A stretch of 64,000 nucleotides of DNA from assembly GCA_963664525.1 (NCBI GenBank), contig OY761535.1, positions 1,180,046 through 1,244,045 of the forward strand, given 5' to 3'. The translations under genes were made by a program, and so were the position numbers. The stretch is from Arenicellales bacterium. Its GTDB lineage: Bacteria; Pseudomonadota; Gammaproteobacteria; Arenicellales; JAJDZL01. Below, in pieces: positions 1 to 28,913 of the stretch. Every line of letters begins with the position of its first letter. The stretch's first letter is position 1. The notes beneath the pieces are model-generated. The model did not search any database and was not told where the DNA came from. It saw only the letters and a program-made list of their open reading frames with translations.

Positions 1-653
1 TGTCAAACGCTATGTCGCGATGCAGCGCGCACTCGGTTACCGATACCATATTCAGGAACAGACACTATCAAATTTTGCTGACTATGCTGACAATCGCAAC
101 GAAAGCACAATACGAACCGACACCGTAATCACGTGGATTGAAGCATCAAAAAACGCCTCGCATGCCTGGCGTGTCGGGAAATTGCGCATGGTGCGCGCAT
201 TTGCTTGCTGGATGCATGCAGAAGATCCACGCCATCAAGTGCCTTCGCGCGACACTTTGGGACGTGCGCTTTATCGCAGAGCGACTCCGTACCTGCTGTC
301 GGCGCAAGACACGCACAAAATCCTGTCAGCCGCTTTGGACACAGAACCTGTAGCAACCATTACGCCGCTGACTTGGCACTATCTGTTCGGATTAATCGCA
401 GCAACCGGAATTCGTATCAGTGAGGCGCTGTCGCTGACTTTCGATGACCTTGTCGATGATGGACTCGTGATTCGGGGCACAAAGTTCAAAAAGTCTCGTA
501 TGGTCGTGCTGCACCCGACCGTGCAGGAGGCAATTGATCGCTACTTAATGCAGCGTCGCCGCGAAAAAGGGGACGACAAGCATCTGTTTGTGATTTCAAC
601 AGGACGACCGCCATCGCTTCGGTACGTACAGTCAGTGTTCAATTCCCTAGTTC

Positions 654-2441
654 GTGTTTGACAGAAAACCAAAATAGAGTATAATATGTCAATATAAACA
701 ATGATGTAGAGGCAGACTTCTGGCACCGAAGATTTCCCGAATCAAGCCAAATATTCGCCTAAAACCCCCAAATTTCTCCTTTTTGATACAATCTTCAGGC
801 CCTGACCATGCGAAAAGTCAAATCCACACAATCTGAACTGGGCGGCACCTTTATCGCCGATATCGTCATTAGCTCGAAATCGCGCGATGACATTCCGGCC
901 TTGCTCAGGGGTCTGCAATATCTGTATACCAACCCGCAGTTGCGAAGCGAAGTCTTTACACTGCTTGATGCACAAGTGAATCCCAAAGCCCGTAAGGACA
1001 CCGGTCGTCCGGGCATGGAGCTTTGGCGCATTCTGGTCCTGGCGATCCTCAAGCAGGGTCTGAATTGCGATTACGACCGCCTCACTGAGCTGGCCAACGA
1101 GCATGGCACCTTGCGACAAATGCTGGGCCACGGGGTGATGGCGCACGAATACGAGCGACAAACCGTGATGGATAACGTCACCTTGCTGAGCCCGCAACTG
1201 TTGGCCAAGATCAACCAACTGCTGGTCCAGGCCGGCCACGAGGTGGTTAGAAAAAAGCCTGGCGAAACATTGCGCGGGCGTTGTGATTCGTTCTGCGTTC
1301 AAACGGATGTTCATTTTCCAACCGATGTCAATTTGTTGTTTGATGCCATGCGTTGCAGCATCACAACAGCGGTCTGGCTCGCCGAGCAGTTGGATCTTGA
1401 GGGCTGGCGCCAGCATCGTCATATTCAAAAAAAGATCAAACAAGCATTCAACCGCGTGCGAACGTCCAAGAAGAATAAGAATTCGCCCGTGCAGGTGAAC
1501 GAGTACCTGGCCCAGTGTCAACAATACCTGAATCGTGCACAGGGTACGCTCAAGCAGGTCGAGGCGTTTGAGCTGACGCTTTTTCAGCAAGCTAAAGTCG
1601 TGCAACTTCAAAACTATATCCGCCACGCACACCGTCAGATCGATCAGGTCACGCGGCGCTTGGTGCGCGAGGAGAAGATTCCTCACCGGGACAAAGTGTT
1701 TTCGGTCTTTGAGCCACACACCCGTTGGGTGGTCAAAGGCAAAGCCGGTGTCCCGCAAGAGCTCGGCGTGCCGGTCTGTGTGGTGGAGGACCACTACCGA
1801 TTTATCCTGCATCACCGTATCCTGTGGGACGGCAGTGATGTTGACCATGCTGTACCGGTCATCGAGCAAGCCCGGCAAAGCTTTCCTGACTTGAACAGCT
1901 GCAGTTTCGATCGTGGCTTTCATTCGCCGGCCAATCAGGTGGCGCTCGGTGAGTTGCTCGATGAATGCGCACTGCCGAAAAAAGGCTATCGCAATATCAA
2001 CGACAAGATGCATGAGTCGCAGCCGTGGTTCAAAGCCGCGCGTGGCAAGCACCCTGGCATTGAGTCGGCGATCAATCATCTGGAGCACTGCGGGCTGGAC
2101 CGGGTTCGGGACCACGGCAAAACAGGTTTTGCCCGTGCGGTGGCGCTGTCGGTACTGGCTGCCAATCTGAAGCGGCTGGGTAGGATCTTGCGCGACAAAG
2201 AGCGTCAGAAACTCGCCCGTCAGCAGCGTTTGCGCGCCGCTTAGCATTTCAATTCACCCATCGGAAACGAAAATCCGGGTGCCGGAGGCACGGCTGTGGG
2301 CTAAATTCGTGATTTTGCCCTGTTTTGGCACTGGATTGTCACAATTCGCCCTGACAGTCCGGCGTTAGTCTTGCTCGGGCTCATTGTCGGTCAAATGTAT
2401 TCTGAATTCTCGCCTAAAATCGGGGGTTTTCTGACTGACAC
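654..2441 (+). mobile_element. Complete 1788-bp insertion sequence (IS4/IS5 superfamily, ISNCY/IS1182-like) inserted in the recombinase gene
   Basis: Imperfect terminal inverted repeats: GTGTTTGACAGAAAACC (654-670) versus the reverse complement of 2425-2441, GTGTCAGTCAGAAAACC (14/17). Flanked by a direct 6-bp duplication TAGTTC (648-653 and 2442-2447). Contains a single long transposase ORF. Confidence 0.8.
808..2244 (+). CDS. DDE transposase (IS5/IS1182/ISNCY-like), 478 aa
   Basis: ATG at 808. The N-terminal segment GRPGMELWRILVLAILKQGLNCDYDRLTELANEHGTLRQMLG resembles the InsH-type (DUF772) transposase N-domain. The C-terminal box HPGIESAINHLEHCGLDRVRDHG resembles the conserved C-terminal motif of IS5/IS1182-type transposases. 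The ORF sits between the IRs. The exact IS family was not determined. Confidence 0.8.
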   Translation: MRKVKSTQSELGGTFIADIVISSKSRDDIPALLRGLQYLYTNPQLRSEVFTLLDAQVNPKARKDTGRPGMELWRILVLAILKQGLNCDYDRLTELANEHGTLRQMLGHGVMAHEYERQTVMDNVTLLSPQLLAKINQLLVQAGHEVVRKKPGETLRGRCDSFCVQTDVHFPTDVNLLFDAMRCSITTAVWLAEQLDLEGWRQHRHIQKKIKQAFNRVRTSKKNKNSPVQVNEYLAQCQQYLNRAQGTLKQVEAFELTLFQQAKVVQLQNYIRHAHRQIDQVTRRLVREEKIPHRDKVFSVFEPHTRWVVKGKAGVPQELGVPVCVVEDHYRFILHHRILWDGSDVDHAVPVIEQARQSFPDLNSCSFDRGFHSPANQVALGELLDECALPKKGYRNINDKMHESQPWFKAARGKHPGIESAINHLEHCGLDRVRDHGKTGFARAVALSVLAANLKRLGRILRDKERQKLARQQRLRAA

Positions 2442-2699
2442 TAGTTCAGAAAGTGGGAATCTGTCTACCCGGCAAACGCGGTCCAACGGTACATTCATTG
2501 AGACACTCGTTCGCGACAAGATCTTTGGAAAACCTGCCTGCCAGGGGCGACCCGGGGCGCCACATGCTGGCACTGGCCACCTATTTGGGCCATGTCAACA
2601 TCACATCCACTTACTGGTATTTGGAATTCTCGCCGAAACTGCAACGAGCCATTGCTGAGGCGACAGAACAGATTCATTTGATTGAGTGTGGAGGCGGTC

Positions 2700-3689
2700 A
2701 TGACTGATCTTGCACCGCACCTTGCCGATTTCCTGCAACGCTATCTGCCTGGAACACGACGTTTCAGTCACCACACCGTGCAAAGCTATACGGAATGTTT
2801 TCGGCTGCTTGCACTTTACGCAGCGATTCGGTTCGACATTCGTCCGAGTGAACTGAAAATCGAGCACCTAGCGCCTTGCGTGGTGACGGACTTTCTCGAC
2901 CAATTGGAACGAGACCGTCAAAACTGTGCGGCGACCTGCAATATCCGCCTCGCTGCCATCAAGTCTTTCTTCCGCTATCTGGAATATCGCCTGCCAGCCT
3001 GTCTGGAGCTGGCGCTGCAGGTGAGCGCAATTCCACAAAGGCGCGCATCGCAACCTTTGATCGACTGGCTTGAGAGCGCCGAGATTCAGGCAATTCTGGA
3101 TGCCCCCGATACGCGTGCACTCGCAGGTATGAGAGACCGAGCGATGCTGCATCTGTGTTACGCTGCCGCATTGCGGGTCTCTGAGCTGACTGCGCTGACC
3201 ATCGACAGCCTCCAAGGGACACGGCTGGAAACCGTACGCATCCTCGGCAAGGGCCGACGCGAACGTGAACTGCCGTTGTGGAAAGAGACTCGAGTTGCTG
3301 TTGGCGCGTGGTTGCAAGTGCGCCCTTCAGTGAACAACCGCTGGTTGTTTCTAAACGCCCGTGGATCTGCCATGAGTACTGACGGATTCGCTTATATTCT
3401 CAGCCGCCATGTTGAGACGGCGACACGATCGATGCCGTCATTGAAAAACAAGCGCATAACTCCGCACGTCATTCGACATTCAACGGCCATGACTGTGTTG
3501 CGTGCCACCGGGGATATTCGCAAAGTGTCGCTGTGGCTGGGCCATGCCAACGTGAAAACAACTGAATCGTACCTGCGAGCGAGTCCCGTTGAGAAACTCG
3601 AGATTCTTAAGGCCAACGCGCCACCTTCACTTCGGCCGGGGACTTTCCATGGTGTGCAGGATCACCTGATGCAGATTCTTAGCGGATAG
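2700..3689 (+). CDS. Tyrosine recombinase (XerC/D-like), last gene of the tandem recombinase array (RitC-like)
   Basis: ATG at 2700 overlaps the upstream recombinase stop (2705-2707); the ORF-track start at 2682 is a TTG. Motifs: RDRAMLHLCYAAALRVSEL (box I Arg), HVIRHSTAMTVL (H-x-x-R), LGHANVKTTESYL (catalytic Tyr). Confidence 0.85.
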   Translation: MTDLAPHLADFLQRYLPGTRRFSHHTVQSYTECFRLLALYAAIRFDIRPSELKIEHLAPCVVTDFLDQLERDRQNCAATCNIRLAAIKSFFRYLEYRLPACLELALQVSAIPQRRASQPLIDWLESAEIQAILDAPDTRALAGMRDRAMLHLCYAAALRVSELTALTIDSLQGTRLETVRILGKGRRERELPLWKETRVAVGAWLQVRPSVNNRWLFLNARGSAMSTDGFAYILSRHVETATRSMPSLKNKRITPHVIRHSTAMTVLRATGDIRKVSLWLGHANVKTTESYLRASPVEKLEILKANAPPSLRPGTFHGVQDHLMQILSG

Positions 3690-3701
3690 GAATGTGCAGG
3701 A

Positions 3702-3814
3702 TTAATGCCGAGTGATTTCGCTCCAAAACCGCGCTTCATGCGGGGGTTGCGTAATTTCTCGGCATTAACAACCACTCGGCATTAAACTTGTAACGCCGAG
3801 CTCGGCATTACAAG
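3702..3814. repeat. Cluster of 11-bp CTCGGCATTAA motifs ending in a 28-bp near-perfect palindrome; probable terminal recombinase-binding region of the RIT-like element
   Basis: TTAATGCCGAG at 3702-3712 (inverted). CTCGGCATTAA at 3758-3768 and 3775-3785. Palindrome CTTGTAACGCCGAG/CTCGGCATTACAAG at 3787-3814 (1 mismatch). It lies directly 3' of the last recombinase gene and abuts the truncation point of istA. Confidence 0.6.
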
Positions 3815-4449
3815 TTATCAGGAACGATGAAGTTCGTCACTCCGCCAAAGAACTTGAGCATGGCGCTACAGCAGTGCAGCCAGTCAGGCAGTGATTGCGA
3901 CCACACTGCGATGACGAAAGTGTAGTGGGAGGCGCCCAGTGCGCCGACGAAGATCTCGGCTTTGCGATCGTCGACCGGAACGGTCAGACCGGAAAAATCG
4001 ACAAACGCTTTGTCGCCGGGCTCGTGGACCTGGCGCATCGATAATTTTTGAGATTTACGCCAGGTGGCGTAATCGCGGGTGAACTGCGAGTAGCTCAGTC
4101 GATAGCCGCTTTGGCAGTGTTCTTGCCACAGCAGCTTTTGGGTGACGCCTTTATGGCGCAGTTGTTCTCGCACTTGTGCGTAATCGACCTGGTATTGGTC
4201 ATCGCTGTTCGGCGTCGGGCCGGCGTACACTTGGGCCCATTGCTGTTCATCGATCGGATGATCCAGGGGCCATTTCAGATTCAGGATCTGTGCCGTTTTG
4301 AGCACTTTTTGCACCGTGCTCTTACTAACCTGGACCGCCGCGGCGATGTCGCGCACCGACAACCCGCAGTCATGCCCTAATCGTAGTATTTCGATTTGCT
4401 TTTGCATTGTGATTTTCCTTCTGCTCATTGCGCCTTGCTCCGCTTTCAA
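3808..4449 (-). pseudogene. istA: IS21-family transposase IstA, N-terminal ~210 aa only (truncated at the VPDNL motif)
   Basis: HTH N-terminus (IEILRLGHDCGLSVRDIAAAVQVSKSTVQKVL), then KAFVDFSG...FVIAVWSQS...VPDNL, ending in a stop supplied by the adjoining palindrome. Intact IstA proteins continue for roughly another 200+ aa past this point. Confidence 0.8.
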
Positions 4450-4470
4450 TGGTGAATCAATTCACCATTG
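4447..4470. promoter_or_regulatory. 24-bp palindrome (11-bp perfect arms) at the 5' end of istA
   Basis: CAATGGTGAAT-CA-ATTCACCATTG. It overlaps the first (TTG) start candidate of the istA fragment. A possible operator; no functional evidence. Confidence 0.3.
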
Positions 4471-4560
4471 AAATGCCAAAGCCAAAGGCAAGTCAAGTTT
4501 TGTGGGAAAATGCTCGCTTGAGGGCCGGTTCGGGCCAGCAACTCAAGTCAATGCAAAGGC

Positions 4561-4680
4561 GTGTCCTTTTTGATGCGATTCACTGTCCGCTAAAATGCGA
4601 ATCGCTGTCCTTTTTGATGCGATTAGGTGTCCTTTTATTCTGCAATCGCCTGTCCGTATACTATGCGATTATGCAGTCCG
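4561..4680. repeat. IS21-type multiple terminal repeats (six copies of a ~(C/G)TGTCC...GCGAT motif)
   Basis: TGTCC cores at 4562-4566, 4584-4588, 4616-4620, 4628-4632 and 4651-4655, plus AGTCC at 4675-4679. Each sits in a similar context (e.g. GTGTCCTTTTTGATGCGATT occurs twice). IS21-family ends characteristically carry such repeated IstA-binding sites. Confidence 0.7.
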
Positions 4681-6031
4681 AACGCCAGTGGTGAATCGGC
4701 CTGACCTTAAGGTGCATGGTCTTAATGGTCCGGAACGCCCGTTCAACCCCACACAGAGACTTATAGGCGCGCACACACTCGGGCGCACTCATGTCTTGGG
4801 CTGACACCGACGTGCGAATCACGTAGACCCCATCAAGCTTGGCTTCATCGGCAATCGAGTGCTCATTGCGATGATAGGTGAACGAGGTATCGTCGATCTT
4901 CCACACAAAGTGTTTTTTCATCTTGTAGCGACTGATCACCTGGCCAAGTTTCACGCCGATCTCGGCACAACCTTGCAGGCGTTTTTGCTTAACTGACTCA
5001 CAAATCTCATCCAGCAACACTTCCGTGGCCTTTAACAGTGCTTCGCGTTTGTGCATACGGCGTTTGGCCAGTGCCGCATTGCGACACACCAACAGCCGCT
5101 CGTTGGGAAACTGTGGATGGTGGACCTCCACTAAGCTTGTGGTGTCGCCGGCATCAATCATCCCGTCGCGCATCAGTTTACGGATCGTCTGGCTTTTGAG
5201 CGCACTAATCCATTTAAAATCTGTGTACTGCCTAAGTGCTTCAATCTGTGCCGTGGCAATCATGCCGCGATCGCCCACCACCACGACCTTGGACAGTGCA
5301 AAGCGCCGCTGCAGGCGGCGCAGCTCCGCGGTCAGTGTCACCGTGTCTGAAACATTCCCCGGATGGACTGATATCGAGACCGGACGCCCCAGACGGTCAC
5401 ACAAAAGCCCGTAGTTGACCTGCAGTTTGCCGCGCTTTTTGTCGCGGTTGTAACCGTAGCGCGCCAGCGCACAGCGCTCACCCTCGAAATAACTGGAACT
5501 CAGATCGTACAGCACCAGGTCGCCATCGTTTAAATGACGCCTGGCCAGTTTACCTTGAATACGGTTTTGACGCGTTAACAGCCAGTCCATTGCGCCGTAC
5601 AGCTCATCGACCTTGGCATCCACAACGTTGAAGTGCTCGGCAAAAGTGGTGGTGTCCCACCACCGGGTGGTGGGCAGCTTGGTCTGTGGACGCACGATTC
5701 TGGCGGCCACCATGGCACACACCAGGTCGCGTTCGCGACTTGCAGTCGAGCCGATCAGGTGTTGGAAGTGGAGTTTCTCGAAGGCTTTGAGCACTGCCAT
5801 GGCCGGGCCGTGGATCCGGCTTTGAGTAATTTCGAATGCCTGATTGACTTCCATGTAGTCGATACCGGCGAGATGTCCTTTGATCAACTCGATCATACGC
5901 GGGTCGGCTTTAGACAGGTTGCCGAGGGTGTGTTTTTGCCGTTTGCCGTGTTTGTCGACGTAGGTTTCGCGCAGCAGAGTACAGCGGTGGGTTTTTCCTT
6001 TGTAGGTGGTTTTGGTGATGGAGATGTGCAT
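4661..6031 (-). pseudogene. IS1634-family (IS4-related) transposase, C-terminus truncated by the IS21 end
   Basis: The N-terminus MHISITKTTYKGKTHRCTLLRETYVDKHGKRQKHTLGNLS fits the typical IS1634-family N-terminal pattern. The C-terminal ...ERAFRTIKTMHLKVRPIHHW then diverges (RSDCIIA*) exactly where the IS21 repeats begin. Confidence 0.75.
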
Positions 6032-6430
6032 GGGCGCAGATCTATTTAGTGCCTAATATATAAGAAACTATTATACAAGATATTGGTGCAATTAAGAGGA
6101 TTAGATCGCCATTAACTGCGACATACAGAGTATGAGACGGAAGATGGAAAAGGATGAAGAAGAATGTTAATTTATTATTTAGTGCCTCTTATACTAAAAA
6201 AGACACAATCATCACTTGAGAAGATAACGCTTTATTACCCGCAACTTACGAGTATCAATATGCGGAAATTGCCTCGGAACTTCAGGTTAGTCGTTCCACA
6301 TCAATTCAAGGATCGAATACGAGAATATTAAAAAATATTCCGAATAGATTCGAGTTATCAGAAAAGATTTTTTTTGGAAACATTCCGGGACTTGCATCTG
6401 CAGTTGTACAATTCGCGAATGGTTAAGCAA

Positions 6431-6562
6431 ATTGACGGCGAAACTTAATGTGTGTGCAATTTCTTGCTCCATACAACCGCTTGATTTGTTGATCATTCAA
6501 ACCAGTGTAGTTGTATGGTCTATATTTGTTCAAAGAACAAAGACAAAGAATTCGCCGTCAAT
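6431..6562 (-). ncRNA. Candidate structured ncRNA immediately 3' of the large RT (possible RT template/scaffold RNA)
   Basis: Outer 12-bp perfect stem: ATTGACGGCGAA (6431-6442) pairs with TTCGCCGTCAAT (6551-6562). It encloses a 9-bp stem (CCATACAAC 6469-6477 / GTTGTATGG 6510-6518) and a 6-7-bp hairpin (TTGTTC-AAA-GAACAA, 6526-6540). On the RT-sense strand a CACACACA tract (6449-6456) lies 6 nt before the 3' arm of the outer stem. It starts 17 nt after the RT stop codon. Strand and true ends are inferred. Confidence 0.5.
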
Positions 6563-6578
6563 CGCAAACCAATGTAGG

Positions 6579-8411
6579 TTAAGAATATACGGAACTCAAC
6601 TCTTTCTTTTCAATAATATTACGTAAATTGATACCTTGCCATTGTACAAACCAGTGCTGTTTTTCAATTTCAATAACTAGCCTCTTTGCATCTACTTTCT
6701 TGATTATTTTTAAACTAGAATCTTCATCTCGGAGTTTCTTCCAGATATCTAAAAGAAGTTTTTGACGATTTTGAATCGGAATGAATGGACATGAAAGCAG
6801 GTCCAATAATAAATGTGCAAGTTCAGTTTCTTTGGTGATTGAGTAAATCTCTGATTTTAATTTTTTGCAAGCTGTCGCAAAAACCGCATCTCGTTGATTA
6901 ATGAATTTTGGGTTGTCTTTATAGATGAACAGTTGAACAATAATTTGAAAATATCGGTCATCGGAAGTACCACGCCTCGCTTTATCTAGCAACTTGGATT
7001 CAACAGAACTGTCTGTGCAAAATTCTTGAAGCGCGACGAGTATATTCAGAAGTTCGATTGGAACGACCGAGCGTTTTTCGAGTAGCGGGGTAAGTGTTGG
7101 TGAATCCACAAGCATATTTGTCCATCGCAAAATAGATTCTTGTAAAACTTCCAATCCCTCTATGTCGTGTTCTTTCATGTATTGTGCACTTACTACCATA
7201 GCGTGAGAAAGTCGAAAAGATGATGCTACAGTGGGATGTAGAGTAAAGAAGTAAAATCCGACATCTAGAATGAATAACATTAGTTTACGATAGTACGCAA
7301 CACCAACGCCATACTCCTTATCATAATTGTCACATAGCTCGATAAGCTTGCGTTTCATTGCACCAACCAAATAGTTGGATACCGCATCATACCCCATGTC
7401 AGATGAATAGCATGCAGCTTTCACTCGACGTGTGAAGTTACCAAACAATGATCGATAACGATATATTCGAATGGGAATTTGAATTTGGCGATCATTGTAT
7501 GTTTTAGTCTCAAGAGTCTTTTTCCAAAGATATTGAATACTTTCATTTACCTTATCGATAACCAAAGACTTCCGAGTATAGAAAGGACGGATTAGTTTCT
7601 CAGTTTTTGACAAATTTAAATGTAGTTTATACTCACGCAATGCTATAGACAATTCGTGTTGAACAGCGGAAAGATATTCCTCTGAATTCGCAAAAATATA
7701 GTAATTGTCGACGTAACGTCTACAATCATAGTCCGAACGTTCGAGTATCTTTTTATCTGCTAAACTTTCAAAAACTACTTGATCTACCTTCGACAATATA
7801 ATTTCAGCGAAAATTCGGCTCGTTTCGGGACCAATGCAAATACCACTAGTTTCATTGTGGTTTATTTTTTGCATTAATCTGTCAAAATTATTGCCAAACG
7901 TCGAGGAAAACGTATATTTCTTTGCAATGCTTTTGTTAATCACCGCCCAAGCAATTGTGTGAGTGTAAATGCTATCAAAACACTTACTAACATCGAGCAT
8001 CAGCCGATATTTGTATTTTTTTTCGAGTCGTGTGTGATCTTCTGAGAGAAAAAAACGATAGAGGCGACTATATCCAAAATATGAGAAGTAGCTGGCAGGA
8101 TTTCTAGCTATGTTCTCAATGTCTATCGTATCAATGGTAGATTTTCTAAATTTGTTTACGTCGTTATCCGCAGATTTGAAGAAGAATGAAGTACCTACTT
8201 TTTTAGGATGGCGAATTGAATAATGACCGCGGCTAGTATACAGACAAATGAGGTGATGATATTCTTCGTAAAACTTGGCAATTTCTACTTGTCCAAATGG
8301 GTGAATTAAACTGAGGGTACGAATGCTATCTGCATCTTTTACGATATTGTATCGGAGGGGAATAGTGCACTTACGGTCATTGTAAACAAGTACATTAATC
8401 AGATTTTGCAA
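6579..8411 (-). CDS. Reverse transcriptase, 610 aa, RT domain + ~280-aa helical C-terminal domain (UG/Abi-type; best guess UG8 / Drt3b-like)
   Basis: RT motifs: LDVSKCFDSIYTH (A), GICIGPETSRIFAEIIL (B), RRYVDNYYIF (C, YVDN rather than YVDD), LHLNLSKTEK (D). The C-terminal ~280 aa looks alpha-helical/repeat-like. No maturase/endonuclease, no retron VTG motif and no HEPN R-x4-6-H motif were seen. The start is a TTG at 8411, the first start codon after an in-frame TGA, with no obvious SD. Very AT-rich. Confidence 0.85.
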   Translation of the reverse strand: MQNLINVLVYNDRKCTIPLRYNIVKDADSIRTLSLIHPFGQVEIAKFYEEYHHLICLYTSRGHYSIRHPKKVGTSFFFKSADNDVNKFRKSTIDTIDIENIARNPASYFSYFGYSRLYRFFLSEDHTRLEKKYKYRLMLDVSKCFDSIYTHTIAWAVINKSIAKKYTFSSTFGNNFDRLMQKINHNETSGICIGPETSRIFAEIILSKVDQVVFESLADKKILERSDYDCRRYVDNYYIFANSEEYLSAVQHELSIALREYKLHLNLSKTEKLIRPFYTRKSLVIDKVNESIQYLWKKTLETKTYNDRQIQIPIRIYRYRSLFGNFTRRVKAACYSSDMGYDAVSNYLVGAMKRKLIELCDNYDKEYGVGVAYYRKLMLFILDVGFYFFTLHPTVASSFRLSHAMVVSAQYMKEHDIEGLEVLQESILRWTNMLVDSPTLTPLLEKRSVVPIELLNILVALQEFCTDSSVESKLLDKARRGTSDDRYFQIIVQLFIYKDNPKFINQRDAVFATACKKLKSEIYSITKETELAHLLLDLLSCPFIPIQNRQKLLLDIWKKLRDEDSSLKIIKKVDAKRLVIEIEKQHWFVQWQGINLRNIIEKKELSSVYS

Positions 8412-8542
8412 ACAAGGAGACTTAGCTCTAAAATCAATTGAACGAAGCCGCTACGCGGCAGACCCTTCATTCGACCGTCAACGATAACGATCCAGATCGT
8501 AAGATTATCCCACCGCTGAGTTCAAAGTAGCCTATTGTAAGA

Positions 8543-8586
8543 GGTGGTGCCCGCGCCAACGGTACACCACCTTTTTTTTATTTTTT
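8543..8586 (+). terminator. Rho-independent-type hairpin + T-run inside the left end of the IS91-like element
   Basis: GGTGGTG (8543-8549) / CACCACC (8565-8571), followed by TTTTTTTTATTTTTT. No + strand gene lies upstream, so it may insulate the IS genes from read-in transcription or form part of the IS end structure. Confidence 0.5.
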
Positions 8587-8600
8587 ACAAGGAGACTACC

Positions 8601-9470
8601 ATGACTCATTGCAACGGCTCAACGCCGTGTTCGCCATTGCGGCAAAGTACTATTGATTATATGACGTTATCAGGACTGGCGGCGCGCACCCAGCAATCCT
8701 ACCTGCACGAGTTGGACAAGTTTGCAGCTCGTGTCAGCACTCCACCCGCACAACTCAGTGCCAACCAAGTTGAGGCCTACGTGCTTGAGCGCATCAACTC
8801 AGGCCTTAAGCCGCGCTCAACCAATTTGACGATCGCGGCGCTACGAATGTTCTACCGCCATGTTGTGAGGTTACCGGATCGGGTGGCTCACTTACGTCTG
8901 CGCAAGGTGGCTGATAAGTTGCCCAAGACCATTGCGGAGTCCGAAGTCAAGCGTCTCATTCAGGCCACCTTCGATCTTCGCTACCGCAGCGCAATTGAGG
9001 TTGCTTACGGGACTGGACTGCGCATCTCTGAGGTCATTGCACTTCGCATCGACGACATTGATGCCGACAAGGGGTTCATTCATGTGCGCTGTGGCAAAGG
9101 CGGCCATGAGCGCATGGCGTATCTGCCGGCCACCGTGCTGTCGGCATTGAACGGCTACTACCGACAGATTTTTCCCAAGCCGCACGGGTGGCTGTTTTAC
9201 GGTAACTGTCCTGACCAGCAGATGAAAGCCGCCACGTTGCGCAGCGCTTTCAATCAGGCGCGCGCCAGAGCCGGAATCAGCAAGGATTTCCCCTTTCATG
9301 GGCTTCGCCACGCGGTCGCAACGCACCTGTTTGAACGCGGCACTGCGCGCGATGTGGTCCAGGACATCCTCGGCCACAAGTCAGTCGAAAGTACGCGCGT
9401 CTACGCCCGCACCACGGCGGCGATGTTTCGCGAGATCGATCACCCGGCCGACAACTGCGTCACACCCTGA
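8601..9470 (+). CDS. Tyrosine recombinase/integrase (accessory ORF of the IS91-family element)
   Basis: ATG at 8601 preceded by AAGGAG (8589-8594). Motifs: AIEVAYGTGLRISEV (Arg box), HGLRHAVATHL (H-x-L-R-H), LGHKSVESTRVYAR (catalytic Tyr). The ORF-track start at 8544 lies inside the hairpin and is unlikely. Confidence 0.85.
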   Translation: MTHCNGSTPCSPLRQSTIDYMTLSGLAARTQQSYLHELDKFAARVSTPPAQLSANQVEAYVLERINSGLKPRSTNLTIAALRMFYRHVVRLPDRVAHLRLRKVADKLPKTIAESEVKRLIQATFDLRYRSAIEVAYGTGLRISEVIALRIDDIDADKGFIHVRCGKGGHERMAYLPATVLSALNGYYRQIFPKPHGWLFYGNCPDQQMKAATLRSAFNQARARAGISKDFPFHGLRHAVATHLFERGTARDVVQDILGHKSVESTRVYARTTAAMFREIDHPADNCVTP

Positions 9471-9473
9471 CCG

Positions 9474-10697
9474 GTGCGTGATGATAACCCCGGTGTGGCC
9501 GATATTTTCCGCCACGCCGGTGATGCGTTTATGGCGCAATGCGGTGCCACCCTTGGCAGGGCTGCACACCGGGCCTTTGCAGCCATTCGAATGTGTCGCA
9601 CCGCCGCGCTCGGTGCGCGCCACTTTGAATGTGCCAAGTGTCACACCTCACATGTGCTTTACAACTCCTGTCGCAACCGCCACTGCTCGACCTGTCAGGG
9701 CCAGGCCGCCCACCGGTGGCTGCACCGCCAGCTGCTCAACGTGCTACCGGCACCGTATTTTCACATCGTCTTCACACTACCACCACCGATTGCCCAGATC
9801 GCCTATGCCAATCGCAAGGTCGTACTGGACATCCTCATGAGAACAGGCGCCCAAACCCTCACCACCATCGCCGCCGATCCAAATCGATTCGGAGCCCGCA
9901 TCGGCGCGACCACGGTCCTACACACATGGAACCAACAACTGCGCTGGCATCCGCATGTTCACGTCGTGGTCCCCAACGCCGGCTTCGATGTCAGGACCGG
10001 TCAATACAAAACCGGCTCCAAAACGTTCTTCGCACCCGTCAAAGTGTTGGCCAAGCTGTTTCGTCGACTGTTCCTCGAACACCTCGACAAAGCCTACCAC
10101 AAAAACCAACTCATCTTCCCCAGACGAATCAACCACCTTCGTGCACCCGAAGCGTTTCAAAGACGACTCAACAAAGCTCGCAACACCGATTGGAACGTGT
10201 ACGCCAAACCCCCGTTCGCCGGCCCCGTACACTTGCTCAAATACCTGTCTCGTTACACCCACCGGGTGGCCATCGCAAACTCGCGCATCGTAAAGTTCGA
10301 CGGCACCCGAGTTTCATTCCGATATCGCAAACCGACAATCGCCGGGCAAACCACACCTCGCTACGCAGTGATGACCTTGTCAGCAACCGAATTTATGAAA
10401 CGCTACCTGATGCATGTCCTGCCACCAAAGTTCCATCGCATCCGACACTTCGGCATCCTTGCCAACGCTCATGTTAAACACACACAGCAACAGATCTTTG
10501 CACAAACCGGTTTCAGTGCGGATGACTGGCTGCGCACGACCGAAACGTACGACACCGTCGAGCACAACGCCACTCCCCAATGCCCCAATTGCCAATCACC
10601 TATGTTGCTGGTTGCGCTCTCGAGTCCGGATCAGCGCCTAATCGGTATCACCGAGTGCTATCTCTCGCGCGCACCACCTTTATTGGTGGCTGCTTGA
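9474..10697 (+). CDS. IS91-family transposase (HUH, Y2 rolling-circle type), 407 aa
   Basis: N-terminal Zn-binding Cys cluster (CAKCH...CRNRHCSTC), HUH motif WHPHVHVVVP, Y2 motif YLSRYTHRVAIANSR. GTG start 4 nt after the integrase stop. Confidence 0.9.
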   Translation: MRDDNPGVADIFRHAGDAFMAQCGATLGRAAHRAFAAIRMCRTAALGARHFECAKCHTSHVLYNSCRNRHCSTCQGQAAHRWLHRQLLNVLPAPYFHIVFTLPPPIAQIAYANRKVVLDILMRTGAQTLTTIAADPNRFGARIGATTVLHTWNQQLRWHPHVHVVVPNAGFDVRTGQYKTGSKTFFAPVKVLAKLFRRLFLEHLDKAYHKNQLIFPRRINHLRAPEAFQRRLNKARNTDWNVYAKPPFAGPVHLLKYLSRYTHRVAIANSRIVKFDGTRVSFRYRKPTIAGQTTPRYAVMTLSATEFMKRYLMHVLPPKFHRIRHFGILANAHVKHTQQQIFAQTGFSADDWLRTTETYDTVEHNATPQCPNCQSPMLLVALSSPDQRLIGITECYLSRAPPLLVAA

Positions 10698-10971
10698 TGT
10701 TTAAGCGAACTGAACGCACTGGACAAGCTATGAATAGCCCATGGCATAGCTGTACGCGACTTGAACGCTTGGGTGCAGCCAAATTAACCGCCAACTGGCA
10801 GCCAAACTGTGCTTGGCAAGCCCAAAGCATCTTCCTGGCAGACAGTTTGTCGTTTTCACAACGAACCCGACACTGGTTCAGCACCAGCAAACCGTCATCC
10901 TGACGGCCTCAGAATCCGATTCCGGTATACTTTCCCCATAGGCCGAAACCGCTGTCGGCCTCGTTCAATCA

Positions 10972-11006
10972 GGTTAGTGATAACGCTTACGCGGTCATCA
11001 CTAACC
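10972..11006. repeat. Perfect 10-bp-stem hairpin directly outside the right IR of the IS91-like element
   Basis: GGTTAGTGAT (10972-10981) / ATCACTAACC (10997-11006) with a 15-nt loop AACGCTTACGCGGTC. No U-run on either strand. It may belong to the IS end or to the RT-RT intergenic RNA. Confidence 0.6.
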
Positions 11007-11131
11007 TTTAAATTAGATTCTTATAGAAACCATCATTTGAAAAAATTATTGGTACTTCGAAAGGAATTGTATCGGTTAAAACTGTTCGATATACATCAGA
11101 ACGACTTAATCTTACTTTTGTACGTTGCGCT

Positions 11132-12370
11132 TTACGCATACTTCCAACACTCTACTAGCTTCTTTAATTTCGTAGGTGAAAAATGAAAATGAATTCTATT
11201 TTCAAACCCCTTACGCGATGACAATCTTAATAAATGTTCTCTTTCCGTCTTCGAAAGTGAATGAGCGAGAAACGCACTTAGTTTTCCACTCTTACTTAAC
11301 AGAATATGTTTGATAAACAGATCAAGCTCCGACAAAGATGTTGAAGGCAAGTCGATTAATCCATAGCTGTGATAGTTTCCAGCAAACCCTATTCTTTGCT
11401 TTTGATGATCATAAAATTTGTAGTTACATGTAATTAATTTGAATCTGTCATGAAGGTCATCGAAATTTTGATCAGTTCGATATTTGAGCAATGCTCGAAC
11501 TATCCTAGTTTTAATCTTTTTTATTTTTGATTGAGAAATGTCAAGATTCACACATCGATAGTGAGGAACGCTAGATTTTTTGACAATTCGACTCACGGAA
11601 AATGAATATCCCAAGTAATCGAATTCGTGCTCTTTTTCGCAGTGTTTTTGTGTCGATTTTTGAAAAGAATATATCTTCGATTTGCTTTCATTTAATTTGA
11701 GTCCTGACGGTAACATTGATGAAACTTCTTTTTTGAGTGTCTGGGTTTCAAACTCTGGTGATAACAACAAAATAATGTCATCTACATATCGAGCATAAAA
11801 ATGCGTTTCTAACTTGCTTTGGATTTTCGTATCAAAATCGTTCAAAAATAATTCGCTGAGGAAAGCGCTAATTGCTAGACCACGTGGTAATCCCTTAATA
11901 TTGTGACCTTTACATTGTGTCATAAAAGTTGACAAAACTCGCCGTGTGCTTGGTAACGTCGATAACCTTCGGTTGACCAATTCCTGAATATGATCTTGAG
12001 TGATAGATTCATAAAAATTTCGAATATCAAATTTTGCAAGTGTAAACGGAATTCCCTCTTTGCAAAAAAGCCTAAGGCATCTGCAAATTTCAATTCTATT
12101 AGCTTGTTTGATACATGCGACCCTTGAAATATTCTCAACCGCTTTACGTAAAACAAGTTCCGAAGGAAAGTCAACTAACTGGTAAATTGATCGTCCAGCA
12201 AGATCATTATGTTGGACGTTCAGGCTGCTAAAACCGTCATTGGCCAGTTGACTAGCACAATTAACTAATTTTTCACGGTTCGATTTCAGGTCAAGATTTG
12301 AGTATTTTTTGAAGTCGCTACTGTGAATGTGGTAACTCAATGCTGTTGGCCCGAAAGTTGAGTCGTACAA
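11132..12370 (-). CDS. Reverse transcriptase, 412 aa, canonical YVDD (UG/Abi-type; best guess UG3 / Drt3a-like)
   Basis: RT motifs: AKFDIRNFYESI (A), GLPRGLAISAFLSELFL (B), ARYVDDIILL (C), GLKLNESKSKI (D), FDYLGYSF (E). TTG start at 12370 with a strong SD (AGGAGGAAACCTT-TTG). No retron VTG motif and no intron maturase/En domains. Very AT-rich. Confidence 0.9.
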   Translation of the reverse strand: MYDSTFGPTALSYHIHSSDFKKYSNLDLKSNREKLVNCASQLANDGFSSLNVQHNDLAGRSIYQLVDFPSELVLRKAVENISRVACIKQANRIEICRCLRLFCKEGIPFTLAKFDIRNFYESITQDHIQELVNRRLSTLPSTRRVLSTFMTQCKGHNIKGLPRGLAISAFLSELFLNDFDTKIQSKLETHFYARYVDDIILLLSPEFETQTLKKEVSSMLPSGLKLNESKSKIYSFQKSTQKHCEKEHEFDYLGYSFSVSRIVKKSSVPHYRCVNLDISQSKIKKIKTRIVRALLKYRTDQNFDDLHDRFKLITCNYKFYDHQKQRIGFAGNYHSYGLIDLPSTSLSELDLFIKHILLSKSGKLSAFLAHSLSKTEREHLLRLSSRKGFENRIHFHFSPTKLKKLVECWKYA

Positions 12371-13511: not shown

Positions 13512-14939
13512 CTATTGTGAAACCTTCCAGTGTTTGGATCGGCAAACAGCTTTCGCAAATTTTTCGATTCGATCGTCCCGAAAATCCAAGGGGTAATATT
13601 GCTGAATTTGTGTCCCATCTTTGTCAACAAGGATTTCTTCCGCCCCCGCCAAACGCGCTGTACCGATCGCAGTCAGTTCTGGAAAAGATCTAACAGTCAC
13701 GCACTGACCCAGTACATCAGCCAGGAATTGACAAAAATAAGGATTAGCGGAAACGCCGCCATCGATTGATATCTCTTCACTTTGCACAAAAAAAGAAGCC
13801 ATAGCCCGAATGACCTCGGTTGTACGCAAAGCGATCCCCTCAATCAGTGACTGCATCATGTCCTGCTGATCACAGTCCAAAGATAGACCAATCCACAAAC
13901 CCGCTGCTCGGCGGTCCCAGTGAGGGCAAGCAAGGCCTGTCAGTGCCGGTACGAACACCAAATCCCGATCAATTGCCGGTGTTTTGTCAAAGCGATTGAG
14001 CGATACATAGTTTTCGAACAGTTTCAGTCCATGCGCCCACTCGATAGCCGAACCGGCACAGTAGACTCCGCCGTCAAGTGCGTATACGGGATCGCTGCCT
14101 TCAAATTGCCATCCAACCGTTGGCAAAAGCCCTTGCTCAGGTGATCGAACAATCTCTTGGCTGGTCACCATCAGGGCGAATGCCCCGGTACCAAAGGTGA
14201 TCTTGGCATCCCCAGCTTGCCGACAGCCATGACCATAGAGCGACGCCTGCTGGTCGACTACACTCGCTGTGATCGGTACCATTTGGCCTTGGCTTTTAAC
14301 CTGACCAAGGTTTCCCGTGGTCGGAACGATTTTGGGCAATACATCCATGGGAACGCCAAATATCTCACAAAGCGTTTCGTCCCATTGGCCGGTCTCAAGA
14401 TTCATCAATGAAGTCCGAGAGGCTGTGGTGATGTCAGTTTTGAATTCGCCGGCCAGTCGATCCAGAAAGTACGCATCCGTAGTACCCAGTCTGAGCTTAC
14501 CCTGTTTTAACAATTTCCCAGCTTCAGGAATATGTTTGATGATCCAGGCGAGTTTACTGGCTGAAAAATAAGAGTCCAATGGCAAGCCCGCGCGATGCAT
14601 GACTTCGTCTTTAACGCCATCTTGTTCCAGACGCTCGATCACATCACCTGTACGATTGTCCTGCCAAACGATCACGGGTGACACAGGTTCTTTACTCACT
14701 GCATGCCAGGCAAGGCAGCTTTCTCCCTGATTATCAATTCCGACTGTCTTGATGTTATTTACTGAATCAAGCGCAGTTTTCAAATTTTGTACCAACTCCA
14801 GTGGGTCGTGTTCTACCCAACCGGGTTTGGGGTAGTATTGTCGATGGCGAATGGTTGCGGAAATGGACGCAGCACCATTGTCTTCAACAGCCAATGCGCG
14901 GGTGCTCGTTGTTCCCTGATCGATGGCCAGTAAAGTCAT
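13512..14939 (-). CDS. glpK: Glycerol kinase (FGGY carbohydrate kinase family)
   Basis: LAIDQGTTSTRA...YPKPGWVEHDP...VWQDNRT... closely parallels the GlpK N-terminus. Full length, 475 aa. Confidence 0.85.
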   Translation of the reverse strand: MTLLAIDQGTTSTRALAVEDNGAASISATIRHRQYYPKPGWVEHDPLELVQNLKTALDSVNNIKTVGIDNQGESCLAWHAVSKEPVSPVIVWQDNRTGDVIERLEQDGVKDEVMHRAGLPLDSYFSASKLAWIIKHIPEAGKLLKQGKLRLGTTDAYFLDRLAGEFKTDITTASRTSLMNLETGQWDETLCEIFGVPMDVLPKIVPTTGNLGQVKSQGQMVPITASVVDQQASLYGHGCRQAGDAKITFGTGAFALMVTSQEIVRSPEQGLLPTVGWQFEGSDPVYALDGGVYCAGSAIEWAHGLKLFENYVSLNRFDKTPAIDRDLVFVPALTGLACPHWDRRAAGLWIGLSLDCDQQDMMQSLIEGIALRTTEVIRAMASFFVQSEEISIDGGVSANPYFCQFLADVLGQCVTVRSFPELTAIGTARLAGAEEILVDKDGTQIQQYYPLDFRDDRIEKFAKAVCRSKHWKVSQ

Positions 14940-14943
14940 TGAT

Positions 14944-16203
14944 TCATGCTACGGGATCAAGAGTAAGTGTGATGACTTCAGGATTTGATGATAGAACGTG
15001 GTGTGCAATCGGAAGGAACACCTGCTCTTCAGGCAAGGCTCTCACCTGCATCTCAGTAAGACTGGATCCATCCGCCCATAATCGGAGCGTTCCCCTTGCT
15101 TCACTAGAAAATTTCACCGAAAGAGACACGACACCATCTCGCCCATTATCTTGCACCAGTCGTTGAGGTGTAACGTACCGGATAACGCCAGCAGTGGACT
15201 GTACTGAAGTAAACCTGTTCGATTCAGGCAAGTCTGCCCTTAGGGACTGCTCGATGGATTTCGCAGTTTTCACTCCCTCCTGCCAGCAGTATCCAGACGA
15301 CTCAGCAGGATGCAACATGTTGCCCGCTACAAAATAATCCGGATCAGAGCAGCGGCCGAATTGATCGACAACCGGAATACCAAACACAGGATTGACTTCC
15401 AAATGCCCCTGAAGTGCCAGGCTTGACTCAGAAACAAACTGTCCGGTGAACAAAACGCCATCGCAGTTGATGTAGTCGTTTTTACCTGTAGCATCTTGCA
15501 GTTGCACCGCGCTGACGCGTTCTTCACCTTCTATGCAAATCACCTCGGTGTTCATCAATGTACGGACACCTTGAAACTTTGCAAACCAGGCGGCAGCTCG
15601 CCAGGCTGTTGGCCGACTGCGTTTTTCCACCATGGCGATTGGCCGAATACCGGCATACCGACAACTCAACAATGCAGAAAATGATACCAGTTCGGTGCCC
15701 ACAATGACAGGATGCATAAATGGCAAACGCGATTTGAGATAAATCATGGATTGCAATGCGCCCGTTGTCATCACACCCATCGGCCTGGTACCGGATATCA
15801 TGCGTGCTGCCCTTGGCGTTTCGCGGACACCAGTGGCCAGAAGAATCCGCTTCGCCTTGAGCAAAATGATTCCTTCTCGGGTTGATATGCGCAAGAAAGG
15901 ACCCTTTTCAATACCAACGACAGTAAACTGTGTTCTAATGTCAACCCCCGCAGATTGGGCCATGTTTACAAGTCTCCTTGCGTATTGCGGTCCTTTCAAA
16001 ATGCGACGAAATTCCTTCCAGCCAAATGGAGGGTGTCCGCAATGCCTGGGAATGCCACCCGCTGTTGCTTCGCGTTCCAAAACCATGACGTGATCAACCC
16101 CGAGATGACGCAATTGCGTCGCAGCACCCAAACCCGCAGGTCCGCTACCCACAACAGCTACATCACAATTTAGATACGGTTCAGGCATACCGTCTTCGAT
16201 CAT
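14944..16203 (-). CDS. NAD(P)/FAD-dependent oxidoreductase (pyridine nucleotide-disulfide oxidoreductase-like)
   Basis: Rossmann motif VAVVGSGPAGLGAA. The ATG at 16203 forms an ATGA overlap with the upstream gene's stop (16200-16202), so the start was trimmed from the ORF-track 16212. Confidence 0.8.
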   Translation of the reverse strand: MIEDGMPEPYLNCDVAVVGSGPAGLGAATQLRHLGVDHVMVLEREATAGGIPRHCGHPPFGWKEFRRILKGPQYARRLVNMAQSAGVDIRTQFTVVGIEKGPFLRISTREGIILLKAKRILLATGVRETPRAARMISGTRPMGVMTTGALQSMIYLKSRLPFMHPVIVGTELVSFSALLSCRYAGIRPIAMVEKRSRPTAWRAAAWFAKFQGVRTLMNTEVICIEGEERVSAVQLQDATGKNDYINCDGVLFTGQFVSESSLALQGHLEVNPVFGIPVVDQFGRCSDPDYFVAGNMLHPAESSGYCWQEGVKTAKSIEQSLRADLPESNRFTSVQSTAGVIRYVTPQRLVQDNGRDGVVSLSVKFSSEARGTLRLWADGSSLTEMQVRALPEEQVFLPIAHHVLSSNPEVITLTLDPVA

Positions 16204-17627
16204 CTGGCACAAGTCATGGATGGATGCAAATGATTTGCAGTCATTTCACTTAACTCTGCACTGCAATAAAAGCCTTGACATCGGCCCATCGTCGCTCGGG
16301 TTCGCCTTTTTAGACCTTCAAGGGACTTGACTGCAAGAGGTCCTTCAAGAGCGTTTAGAATCTCACGACGGGTGACCAGTTCACAGTGACAGATGATTCC
16401 TCCATTACCAGCCAGTGTCCAGTCTCGCTCACCGAATTCACTGATCGACGGCACAGTGGGCCATACCACTTTTTCTGTTGATGGCGACACTGACAGGCAT
16501 TTGAATAGCTTTTCAGTTGCCAGTTGGGCGATCCCCAACGCTGCACTGAGTCCGGTTGAACGAATGCCGCCAATGCAAATGTACTGGAGATTCTCGTTCA
16601 TATGAATTTGATAATCATTGAACTGGGTTGCGGGGCGAATGCCGGCGTATACGGCGGTCACATCGTGTTGACGCAATTGTGGCAGTACACTTTGTCCCAC
16701 TGATTTGATCCGTTCCAGAACATTCTTGTCTACACTCGTATCGTCACGGCTATCTTGCTCCTCGGCGCTTGGGCCAACCAACAGATTGCCAAAAACTGTA
16801 GGACACACCACGATACCCTTGGTCGTCTTGGTCGGTACTGGTAAAAGAATTGTATTGGTCAAACTGAAAGCTGGTTTGTCATAGACGAGGAACTGGCCTT
16901 TACGAGGTTTGATGCGAAATTCCGGTTCACCAATCAGCCAATCATGCAAGATATCACCATAAAGACCTGCACAGTTCACCAGGTATCGAGCCTGTAATTC
17001 ACCCTGACTGGTGGAAACTCGCCAGTATTCGCCTTCAAATCGCCCCAACACGACTTTACATTCACTGAGAAATTGAGCCCCAAGAGCGACAGCATGGCGC
17101 AGGTATGCCAAGGGTGTTGACCAAGGGTCTACCAAGCTCTCACCTGGAACTAAAATCGCTCCTTTGACATTTTTTGCCAGGGCAGGAACCCGAGTAGAGA
17201 TATCAGCGATGTCCATGACGCAAACATCTTCGACTCCATTCGCATGGGCTTTGGACACGATGGCATCAAATTGCGATAGCTGTGCATCGTTCCACGCGAT
17301 AACCATGGCCCCGCTTCGCACCAAAGGCAAATTGTAGCGCTGGTGAATTTCGCAAAACTCCTGGTATCCAGCGGCGATACACGCCTGTTCAACCGACCCT
17401 AAAGGTGCATCAAATCCGGTATGTAAAATCGCACTGTTGGCTTTACTCGCCCCACCGAGAATGTCTGCTTCCTTGTCCACCAAAGCGACATGTGCGCCTT
17501 CCATGGCTAATTTGCGGGTTACTGCACAGCCCACAACCCCGGCCCCAATAACCAAAATGTCATAGATTTGCTGAGACGATGAATGGTTTGCGTCTGAGAT
17601 TGTCATAAGCGAATTGTGTATCTGCAA
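16200..17627 (-). CDS. FAD-dependent oxidoreductase with C-terminal BFD-like [2Fe-2S] domain (glycerol-3-phosphate dehydrogenase-like)
   Basis: FAD-binding motif ILVIGAGVVGCAV. C-terminal CHCELVTRREI...MGRCQGFYC. Lies in an operon with glpK. Confidence 0.75.
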   Translation of the reverse strand: MQIHNSLMTISDANHSSSQQIYDILVIGAGVVGCAVTRKLAMEGAHVALVDKEADILGGASKANSAILHTGFDAPLGSVEQACIAAGYQEFCEIHQRYNLPLVRSGAMVIAWNDAQLSQFDAIVSKAHANGVEDVCVMDIADISTRVPALAKNVKGAILVPGESLVDPWSTPLAYLRHAVALGAQFLSECKVVLGRFEGEYWRVSTSQGELQARYLVNCAGLYGDILHDWLIGEPEFRIKPRKGQFLVYDKPAFSLTNTILLPVPTKTTKGIVVCPTVFGNLLVGPSAEEQDSRDDTSVDKNVLERIKSVGQSVLPQLRQHDVTAVYAGIRPATQFNDYQIHMNENLQYICIGGIRSTGLSAALGIAQLATEKLFKCLSVSPSTEKVVWPTVPSISEFGERDWTLAGNGGIICHCELVTRREILNALEGPLAVKSLEGLKRRTRATMGRCQGFYCSAELSEMTANHLHPSMTCAR

Positions 17628-17660
17628 ATTCCCACTGTTTTCAATCCTGCGACGGCAACT

Positions 17661-18866: not shown

Positions 18867-19678
18867 GAATCCAAACTGTCGTCTGGATGTCCGAGTTCGC
18901 AAAACCAACCGCCCAAGTACTTTACGCCAATCGAGTCCGGGTGCCCAGCAGGTGATTGGCTTTCGATACCATCGCGAAACGCTTCGCTGCTGTCCTGAGG
19001 CTCATATCCAATGTGCCCCGCCTTTCGATCATCAACCACTTTGAGCCGGTTATCGGAAATTCCAAAAGCAATAGTGTGTCCGATTCGCGGTGCGATCAGT
19101 GCGCGTGTGACATATTGAATGCAATCACTAAACGACATCCAACTCCAGAGCATACGTCGATCAGTCGGTTCAGGAAACGACGAAAATATTCTCAAGCACA
19201 ATGTTTCGATCTGAAATTTGTCCCAGTAGAGCCGGCTGAGACTTTCAACAAAATTTTTCGAGACCCCGTACAGGCTGTCCGGACGATTAGGTCTATCAGC
19301 ATCAATATGAGCTTCCAATTCGTGAAATCCGATCGCATGAACGGAAGATGCATAAATGACTCGCGACACACCATTTTTTCGTGCACTCTCATAAACGTTA
19401 TAAGAACCGCGTATATTGCTCTCCAATATGGTTTCAAAATCGTTTTCATAAACCGCACCACCAAAATGTACGATCGCATCGACGTCTTGACCCATCTCCA
19501 AAACGCCTTGATAGTCACCAAGTTCACAAATAATCACTTCTTCGTTGTCGCTCGGATTATCGATTTGCACACGATCGGACAATCGGATTGTGTTCGCTAA
19601 AGGTGCCAGTCCCTTGCGTAGTTCGGTTCCCAACCTTCCAGCGGCACCTGTAAGCAAAATTCTGTTGTACTTTTTCAA
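18863..19678 (-). CDS. NAD-dependent epimerase/dehydratase-family dehydrogenase (uronate dehydrogenase-like)
   Basis: ILLTGAAGRLG Rossmann motif and YGVSK (Y-x-x-x-K). The overall pattern resembles Udh-type uronate dehydrogenases. Confidence 0.7.
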   Translation of the reverse strand: MKKYNRILLTGAAGRLGTELRKGLAPLANTIRLSDRVQIDNPSDNEEVIICELGDYQGVLEMGQDVDAIVHFGGAVYENDFETILESNIRGSYNVYESARKNGVSRVIYASSVHAIGFHELEAHIDADRPNRPDSLYGVSKNFVESLSRLYWDKFQIETLCLRIFSSFPEPTDRRMLWSWMSFSDCIQYVTRALIAPRIGHTIAFGISDNRLKVVDDRKAGHIGYEPQDSSEAFRDGIESQSPAGHPDSIGVKYLGGWFCELGHPDDSLDS

Positions 19679-21175: not shown

Positions 21176-21182
21176 ATTGATG

Positions 21183-23935: not shown

Positions 23936-23953
23936 TCTTTAGCGATATTCGAC

Positions 23954-28908: not shown

Positions 28909-28913
28909 AGCAC

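Follow-up and report, generated by a model that had tools for sequence, protein, structure and literature searches.

In a 64,000-nt stretch of DNA from an Arenicellales bacterium (referred to below as the window) a short segment with nested inverted repeats lies directly after the gene of a large reverse transcriptase (RT), which raises the question of whether the segment encodes the template RNA of an anti-phage RT system and, if it does, whether that system is still intact. An earlier note on this DNA, made from the raw sequence alone, had proposed that the segment is a template/scaffold ncRNA of DRT3 type. We examined this proposal through the fold of the element, its conservation among relatives, the identity of the neighbouring genes and comparison with published systems.

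A closing stem encloses three stem-loops and an unpaired ACACAC motif

The structured element lies on the minus strand at 6420-6571 (~150 nt; all coordinates are window positions), as given by its fold, its match to a covariance model and the limits of its conservation. The stop codon (TAA) of the RT gene, drt3b, is at 6581-6579, the folded structure begins 8-16 nt past it, and 16 nt (not 17 nt, as counted in the earlier note) separate it from the perfect 12-bp core of the closing stem P1. This core pairs 6551-6562 of the 5′ arm (6551-6571) with 6431-6442 of the 3′ arm (6420-6442); the latter segment (ATTGACGGCGAA on the plus strand) is the exact reverse complement of the former, and in the fold the stem grows to ~20 bp (6571-6551 with 6442-6420). 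Enclosed by P1 are three stem-loops. Stem-loop A (6519-6547 in the minimum free energy (MFE) fold) contains a 6-bp hairpin at 6526-6540 that can be read directly off the minus strand (TTGTTCTTTGAACAA). Stem-loop B (6469-6518) is two-tiered, with a 10-bp outer helix, which includes a perfect 9-bp stem (6469-6477 being the exact reverse complement of 6510-6518), and a 7-bp inner helix. Stem-loop C (6456-6467) reads GCAA-GAAA-TTGC, that is, 4 bp closed by a GAAA loop. The 12-bp stem, the 9-bp stem and the hairpin at 6526-6540 had all been described correctly before, and both of the helices that were then placed inside the closing stem are real, but the third, stem-loop C, had been missed.

Stem-loop C abuts the 5′ side of an AC tract at minus-strand 6456-6449 (CACACACA), which, as the earlier note had placed it, is separated by 6 nt (TTAAGT) from the P1 3′ arm downstream. 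Because the closing C of stem-loop C is the first C of CACACACA, the conserved unpaired motif is ACACAC(A) at 6455-6449. It comprises a putative template, 5′-ACACAC-3′ (6450-6455), which stays unpaired whether the MFE or the centroid fold is taken, and an extra A at 6449, with which the single-stranded linker A-TTAAGT (6443-6449) to the P1 3′ arm begins. The hexamer thus directly follows a stem-loop and shortly precedes the P1 3′ arm, which is where the template sits in the DRT3 architecture, and by analogy with the E. coli system (EcoDRT3) stem-loop C is likely to be the 5′ template boundary, the equivalent of ‘stem-loop 4’ of the EcoDRT3 ncRNA.

The view that such nested pairing is not accidental was borne out by folding with RNAfold: minus-strand 6420-6578 has an MFE of −54.4 kcal/mol, compared to −29.5 ± 3.8 kcal/mol for 200 dinucleotide shuffles (z = −6.5), none of which (0/200) folded as well. 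The longer minus-strand stretch 6290-6578, which had been put forward for folding, gave an unchanged core fold (z = −4.2). A search of Rfam 15 returned no match at E ≤ 1 on 5900-8600 and, for the whole window at the gathering threshold, four tRNAs only; since Rfam 15 contains no DRT3 family, membership of the element in this class rests on synteny, architecture and the covariance model built here. Just upstream of the element, within the last drt3b codons, is a promoter-like site (TTGAAA-18 nt-TATATT, 6613-6584 on the minus strand, 10/12 matches) that would place a transcription start at the 5′ end of the ncRNA and could, judged from its sequence, drive the ncRNA independently of the operon; its −35 hexamer overlaps conserved codons, its −10 hexamer is not conserved in relatives, and such matches are no commoner here than in shuffles.

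Orthologous drt3b genes are followed by a conserved, covarying RNA

The comparison drew on 4 loci from genomes and 80 from metagenomes, together with 5 contigs that carry the closest homologues (61-71% identity), and Drt3a-Drt3b synteny is the rule in this set. ACACAC occurs 100-255 nt past the drt3b stop codon in 80 of 82 loci. After removal of duplicates it was present in the sense orientation in 70 of 71 distinct regions and in the antisense orientation in 3 of 71, compared to 23 of 352 (6.5%) 300-nt coding control windows, and the local consensus around it is G-C-ACACAC-(T/C). The window copy reads ACACACA followed by the 6-nt linker, ACACAC-T/C being commoner among relatives. MFE folds share the plan of the window RNA down to 31% Drt3b identity: the closing stem is long (median 13 bp), there are hairpins inside it and the template is unpaired, and the gap from the template to the P1 3′ arm in relatives has a median of 2 nt (0-13 nt in most).

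An alignment-free test covered the 71 distinct loci, so that relatives below ~45% Drt3b identity could be included. In 61 of the 71, the first 60 nt past the stop codon paired with the 35 nt past ACACAC more stably than with shuffled versions of this 3′ flank in at least 95% of cases, and the median pairing energy over the 71 loci was −29.0 kcal/mol compared to −17.6 kcal/mol for the shuffles. Between the window and its four closest relatives, the nucleotide sequence is conserved from the drt3b stop codon for as far as the P1 3′ arm reaches and falls away sharply beyond it, which bounds the element at about 6420-6571.

For alignment we used a covariance model seeded with the window and three relatives, since MAFFT put the ACACAC register of more distant relatives off by 2 nt. 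The model has a single match in the window (6425-6567 on the minus strand, 118 bits) and also matches directly after drt3b in 17 other loci (18 in total), its reach at E < 0.1 being relatives with at least ~31-55% Drt3b identity; the published DRT3 covariance model comprises 41 systems. In alignments to our model, which are fitted to the structure and hence biased towards it, 95-96% of cells hold standard pairs, compared to 30-43% when the 3′ partners are slid by 1-3 columns, and 33 of 36 pairs have changed on both sides; none of 500 column shuffles reached the observed value. Changes on both sides among relatives affect all 14 pairs of P1, all 6 pairs of stem-loop A (~96% of its cells pair) and 11 of the 12 pairs in the two helices of stem-loop B. 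In stem-loop C the outer pairs, G-C and C-G, hardly vary at all, and the inner ones are either G-C or A-U depending on the locus (GC in 11, AU in 7). Because model-fitted alignments lean towards the structure, plain MAFFT and RNAalifold were run as well, and on the five closest sequences these found all four helices again and 19 compensatory pairs in them. Covariation downstream of homologous RTs had been named in the earlier note as a way to check its proposal, and both conservation and compensatory pairs were thus found.

The resulting comparative set holds ~70 loci with the ACACAC and closing-stem architecture, down to ~31% Drt3b identity, and includes a clade in which a GNRA-type hairpin abutting the template goes together with the motif YVDN in Drt3b.

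The adjacent genes encode Drt3a and a Drt3b split by a mobile element

The large RT next to the element is Drt3b (a UG8 class-1 RT). Its 3′ part occupies minus-strand 6579-8435, where an open frame of 610 aa (6579-8411, TTG at 8411) matches the PADLOC Drt3b profile (E = 4e-179, aligned from profile position 49) and PDB chain 9z6y_H, ‘Drt3b reverse transcriptase protein’ (E = 6e-92, from chain residue 66). Both alignments begin ~50 residues into the reference, and full-coverage homologues are ~665 aa in all of the at least 120 listed. The missing start was located by tblastn with the Drt3b of a relative (L002), residues 1-42 of which align to 11139-11014 and residues 44-668 to 8435-6579, both on the minus strand. 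The 5′ fragment of drt3b (11011-11139, minus strand, 43 codons) is therefore separated from the remainder of the gene; the frame is split after codon 43, the 5′ piece meets a stop one codon into the insert, and an intact Drt3b frame (~665 aa, including the N-terminal Glu gate) is absent from the window. The truncated protein has no exact counterpart on record.

The equivalent of E. coli Drt3b E22 is E28 in the window, the Glu of PFEVP, and lies on the detached 43-codon fragment, in a segment that is nearly invariant in 33 homologues. Equivalents of R71, D182, F187, R241, Y276 and D278 are present in the 610-aa body, as is the penultimate Tyr that corresponds to the primer. The catalytic motif, YVDN (7704-7715, residues 233-236 of the 610-aa frame), differs from YVDD of E. 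coli Drt3b (D279 to Asn), and its Asn is the consensus across 34 aligned homologues of the clade.

Between the two drt3b pieces lies an IS91-family insertion of ~2.57 kb (8440-11010, plus strand), flanked by AATT at 8436-8439 and 11011-11014. It encodes a tyrosine recombinase (8544-9470, plus strand; Pfam Phage_integrase) and a Y2/IS91 transposase (9474-10697, plus strand; Pfam Y2_Tnp and Zn_Tnp_IS91), and its plasmid matches are annotated ‘IS91 family transposase’. Alignment to two intact relatives put the break within ...AATCTAATT | GATTTTAGA..., with AATT at both junctions. The GC content of the insertion is 52-61%, compared to 34-40% in the flanking DRT3 DNA, and with it 2.6 kb of genes in the opposite orientation have come to lie between drt3a and the ncRNA. 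A 14-bp hairpin (10971-10984/10994-11007) adjoins one end of the insertion, and inverted repeats ATTGAACGAAGCCG / CGGCCTCGTTCAAT occur at 8437-8450 and 10956-10969.

Upstream of drt3b is drt3a (11132-12370, minus strand), which encodes a UG3 class-2 RT of 412 aa with an intact YVDD motif. The protein matches the full-length PADLOC Drt3a profile (E = 6e-128) and PDB chain 9z6y_A (E = 7e-67), and is 50% identical to the Drt3a of L002 over 413 aa (tblastn). The drt3a stop codon overlaps the drt3b ATG by 8 nt, and likewise in relatives.

The window RNA compared with known systems

DRT3 of E. coli ECOR12 was described by Wang, Yoneyama et al. (2026, bioRxiv, PMC13174585). In that system the RTs co-purify with an ncRNA whose gene lies downstream of drt3b, and a conserved loop of this RNA, 5′-ACACAC-3′, templates the synthesis of poly(dTdG) by Drt3a; mutation of the ACACAC segment abolishes both poly(dTdG) and defence, and products are cut short when synthesis runs on into the stem-loop that adjoins the template. 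Drt3b uses Tyr666 as its primer and needs no nucleic-acid template to make poly(dCdA), with Glu22 and Arg241 as gates, E22 being the gate for dATP. Defence requires the active sites of both RTs, and the phage RecBCD inhibitor Gam triggers abortive infection (PMC13174585). According to two reviews (PMC13213688 and PMC13314766), Deng et al. (2026, Science, doi 10.1126/science.aed1656) arrived at the same division of labour and reported that Drt3a, Drt3b and the ncRNA form a 6:6:6 complex, for which the RNA also provides the scaffold.

The window RNA resembles the EcoDRT3 ncRNA in its position on the same strand directly after drt3b, in its size (~150 nt), in a closing stem around several stem-loops and in an unpaired 5′-ACACAC-3′ that directly follows a stem-loop and precedes the 3′ arm of the closing stem by a few nt; the partner genes, drt3a and drt3b with overlapping stop and start codons, are the same too. 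The published 161-nt EcoDRT3 ncRNA (PMC13174585, Table S3), when folded here, formed a 10-bp closing stem and internal stem-loops, with ACACAC 4 nt before the 3′ arm. However, outside the motif there is no detectable primary-sequence similarity between the two RNAs. The hairpin adjoining the template in the window is a 4-bp stem with a GNRA-type tetraloop, ACACACA and a 6-nt linker take the place of the ACACAC and 4 nt of E. coli, and the E. coli RNA ends in a terminator hairpin whereas none follows the window RNA. The systems differ further in the catalytic motif of Drt3b (YVDD in E. coli, YVDN in the clade of the window) and in the interruption of the window operon by an insertion sequence.

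Other defence RTs offer less close parallels. The ncRNAs of DRT10 (UG17) and DRT9 (UG28) are likewise structured, lie beside a class-2 UG RT and have a short loop segment that is copied reiteratively into tandem-repeat or homopolymer DNA, and the position of the DRT3 template is analogous to that of theirs (PMC13174585). They differ in RT family, template and product and have no second, protein-templated RT, and in PADLOC the window RTs reach much higher scores with the Drt3a and Drt3b profiles than with those of UG17 or Drt9. Retron msr-msd RNAs share with the window RNA their structure, long flanking inverted repeats and role as the template of an adjacent defence RT, but are located upstream of the RT and are copied once, from a 2′-OH branch, into a defined msDNA, with no dinucleotide-repeat template; the window RT matches retron models weakly.

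By analogy with EcoDRT3, we infer that the window RNA serves as template and scaffold for Drt3a, with ACACAC at 6455-6450 as the template. In an intact system Drt3a would bind the RNA, whose closing stem encloses the three stem-loops, and would repeatedly copy the unpaired hexamer; the hairpin at 6467-6456 would set the 5′ template boundary, and the product would slip back at each pass through dinucleotide microhomology, as in telomerase, to yield poly(dTdG). Drt3b would prime on its penultimate Tyr and make poly(dCdA) without a nucleic-acid template, gated by Glu and Arg side chains. The two strands would anneal to GT/AC duplex DNA, which would drive abortive infection once a phage blocks RecBCD, and the ncRNA would in addition scaffold a 6:6:6 complex. 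The idea that the AC tract is a reiterative template for GT repeats is thus supported by EcoDRT3, but the enzyme predicted to copy it is Drt3a and not Drt3b, the large RT next to the element.

This class of RNA was already described in 2026, as were its ACACAC template and the GT/AC-repeat product, and the window copy is one more orthologue. The remark in the earlier note that DRT3-type systems had been reported to make alternating-dinucleotide DNA agrees with those publications. Since the adjacent RT is Drt3b, orthologous drt3b genes are followed by an RNA with conservation and covariation and the ACACAC template is published, the template ncRNA of DRT3 type had been correctly spotted from the raw sequence.

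Is the system still active?

The element is very probably the ncRNA of a DRT3 (Drt3a/UG3, Drt3b/UG8 and ncRNA) anti-phage system whose locus is a recently inactivated relic. By descent the locus is DRT3, and it fails as an intact system. That a mobile element has split drt3b means that the system is probably dead: substitutions at E22 of E. coli Drt3b abolish defence, and E22A and E22K also lose DNA synthesis (PMC13174585), and, together with the near invariance of the detached N-terminal segment, this implies that the interrupted drt3b, and the system with it, should be inactive. The insertion appears to be recent, since no other damage is seen in drt3a, in either piece of drt3b or in the ncRNA. 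As far as can be judged from sequence, a recently inactivated relic is the most likely status of the system, and the locus would then be a clean natural example of an insertion sequence knocking out a defence system.

We consider it unlikely that the system is still active, either because a promoter in or at the edge of the insertion expresses the 610-aa frame or because Drt3a and the ncRNA alone make functional poly(TG) ssDNA. The absence of other lesions in drt3a, the drt3b body and the ncRNA would fit such activity, as would the promoter-like site just upstream of the ncRNA, and purified Drt3a and ncRNA do make poly(dTdG) in vitro when only dGTP and dTTP are supplied (PMC13174585). However, Drt3a alone makes little product when all four dNTPs are present (PMC13174585), which, like the need for both active sites, speaks against continued activity, and the expressed 610-aa frame would still lack the near-invariant segment with the E22-equivalent Glu in a family whose listed full-coverage members are all ~665 aa. 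Quite unlikely, too, is the proposal that the intact Drt3a and ncRNA form a working two-part ‘half DRT3’, or that a truncated Drt3b without the Glu gate makes a different product. Were the former true, ssDNA poly(TG) without a complementary strand would be produced, with a different output or regulation, and the ncRNA would be transcribed from the promoter-like site at 6613-6584.

That the element is only a 3′-UTR, a terminator or an mRNA-stabilising structure of drt3b, or that the 69-aa ORF at 6287-6496 is a real gene, is very improbable. The element does follow the stop codon closely, and the ORF does have an ATG. However, the minus strand has no T-run or terminator-like site here, and the terminator reading was rejected for want of a T-run; a four-helix junction with an invariant unpaired hexamer far exceeds what a terminator needs, and the effect of ACACAC mutations on defence and poly(dTdG) in EcoDRT3 (PMC13174585) speaks against these roles. 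The ORF, held to be noncoding in the earlier note as well, was rejected as a gene because neither its start codon nor its second half is conserved: the ATG is unique to this genome, being absent in 4 of 4 closest relatives, and similarity ends in mid-ORF, collapsing after 6425. There is a negligible likelihood that the inverted repeats are the ends of a MITE, an origin that the earlier note had itself raised, or part of the neighbouring insertion sequences: transposase and integrase genes do surround the locus, but we rejected this reading because the element is present as a single copy in the window by both blastn and the covariance model and its helices change by compensatory substitutions, which are not expected from selection on DNA ends, and, moreover, it always lies directly after drt3b, in unrelated genomic contexts, and its ACACAC is strand-specific.

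Genomic surroundings

The DRT3 DNA (6032-8435 and 11011 to ~13000) has a GC content of 34-40%, compared to 47-61% in the surrounding chromosome and the insertion, and because of this contrast the defence locus looks horizontally acquired. A megablast search of the locus against plasmids gave no match. Downstream of the ncRNA (window 1-6031) is a cluster of mobile-element genes, comprising a tyrosine recombinase (2682-3689, plus strand), a protein with an HTH and a partial rve domain that is possibly truncated (3808-4449, minus strand) and a DDE_Tnp_1 transposase (4661-6031, minus strand), together with two long, overlapping antisense ORFs (742-2247 on the minus strand, which has no Pfam match, and 808-2244 on the plus strand). 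The ncRNA and the start of the DDE transposase gene are separated by an AT-rich spacer in which the direct repeat AGGCACTAAATA occurs twice on the minus strand (6185-6196 and 6047-6058, ~140 nt apart); it may represent a recombination site or the end of an IS. Beyond drt3a (13512-31086) the genes are ordinary chromosomal ones, for an FGGY sugar kinase, three FAD-dependent oxidoreductases, LptF and LptG, valyl-tRNA synthetase and a PpiD-like chaperone, with tRNA-Asp and tRNA-Val at 30920-31086. Such flanking genes point to the chromosome of a Gram-negative host, with a GC content of ~50-55%.

Among the relatives, one locus (L088, 62% Drt3b identity, from a contig of 2.68 Mb) has two separate ORFs, 204 aa and 195 aa long, in place of a drt3a of the usual ~410 aa (positions 1714-3008 of that locus), and its ncRNA still scores 79 bits with the covariance model; this may be another decayed DRT3 operon.
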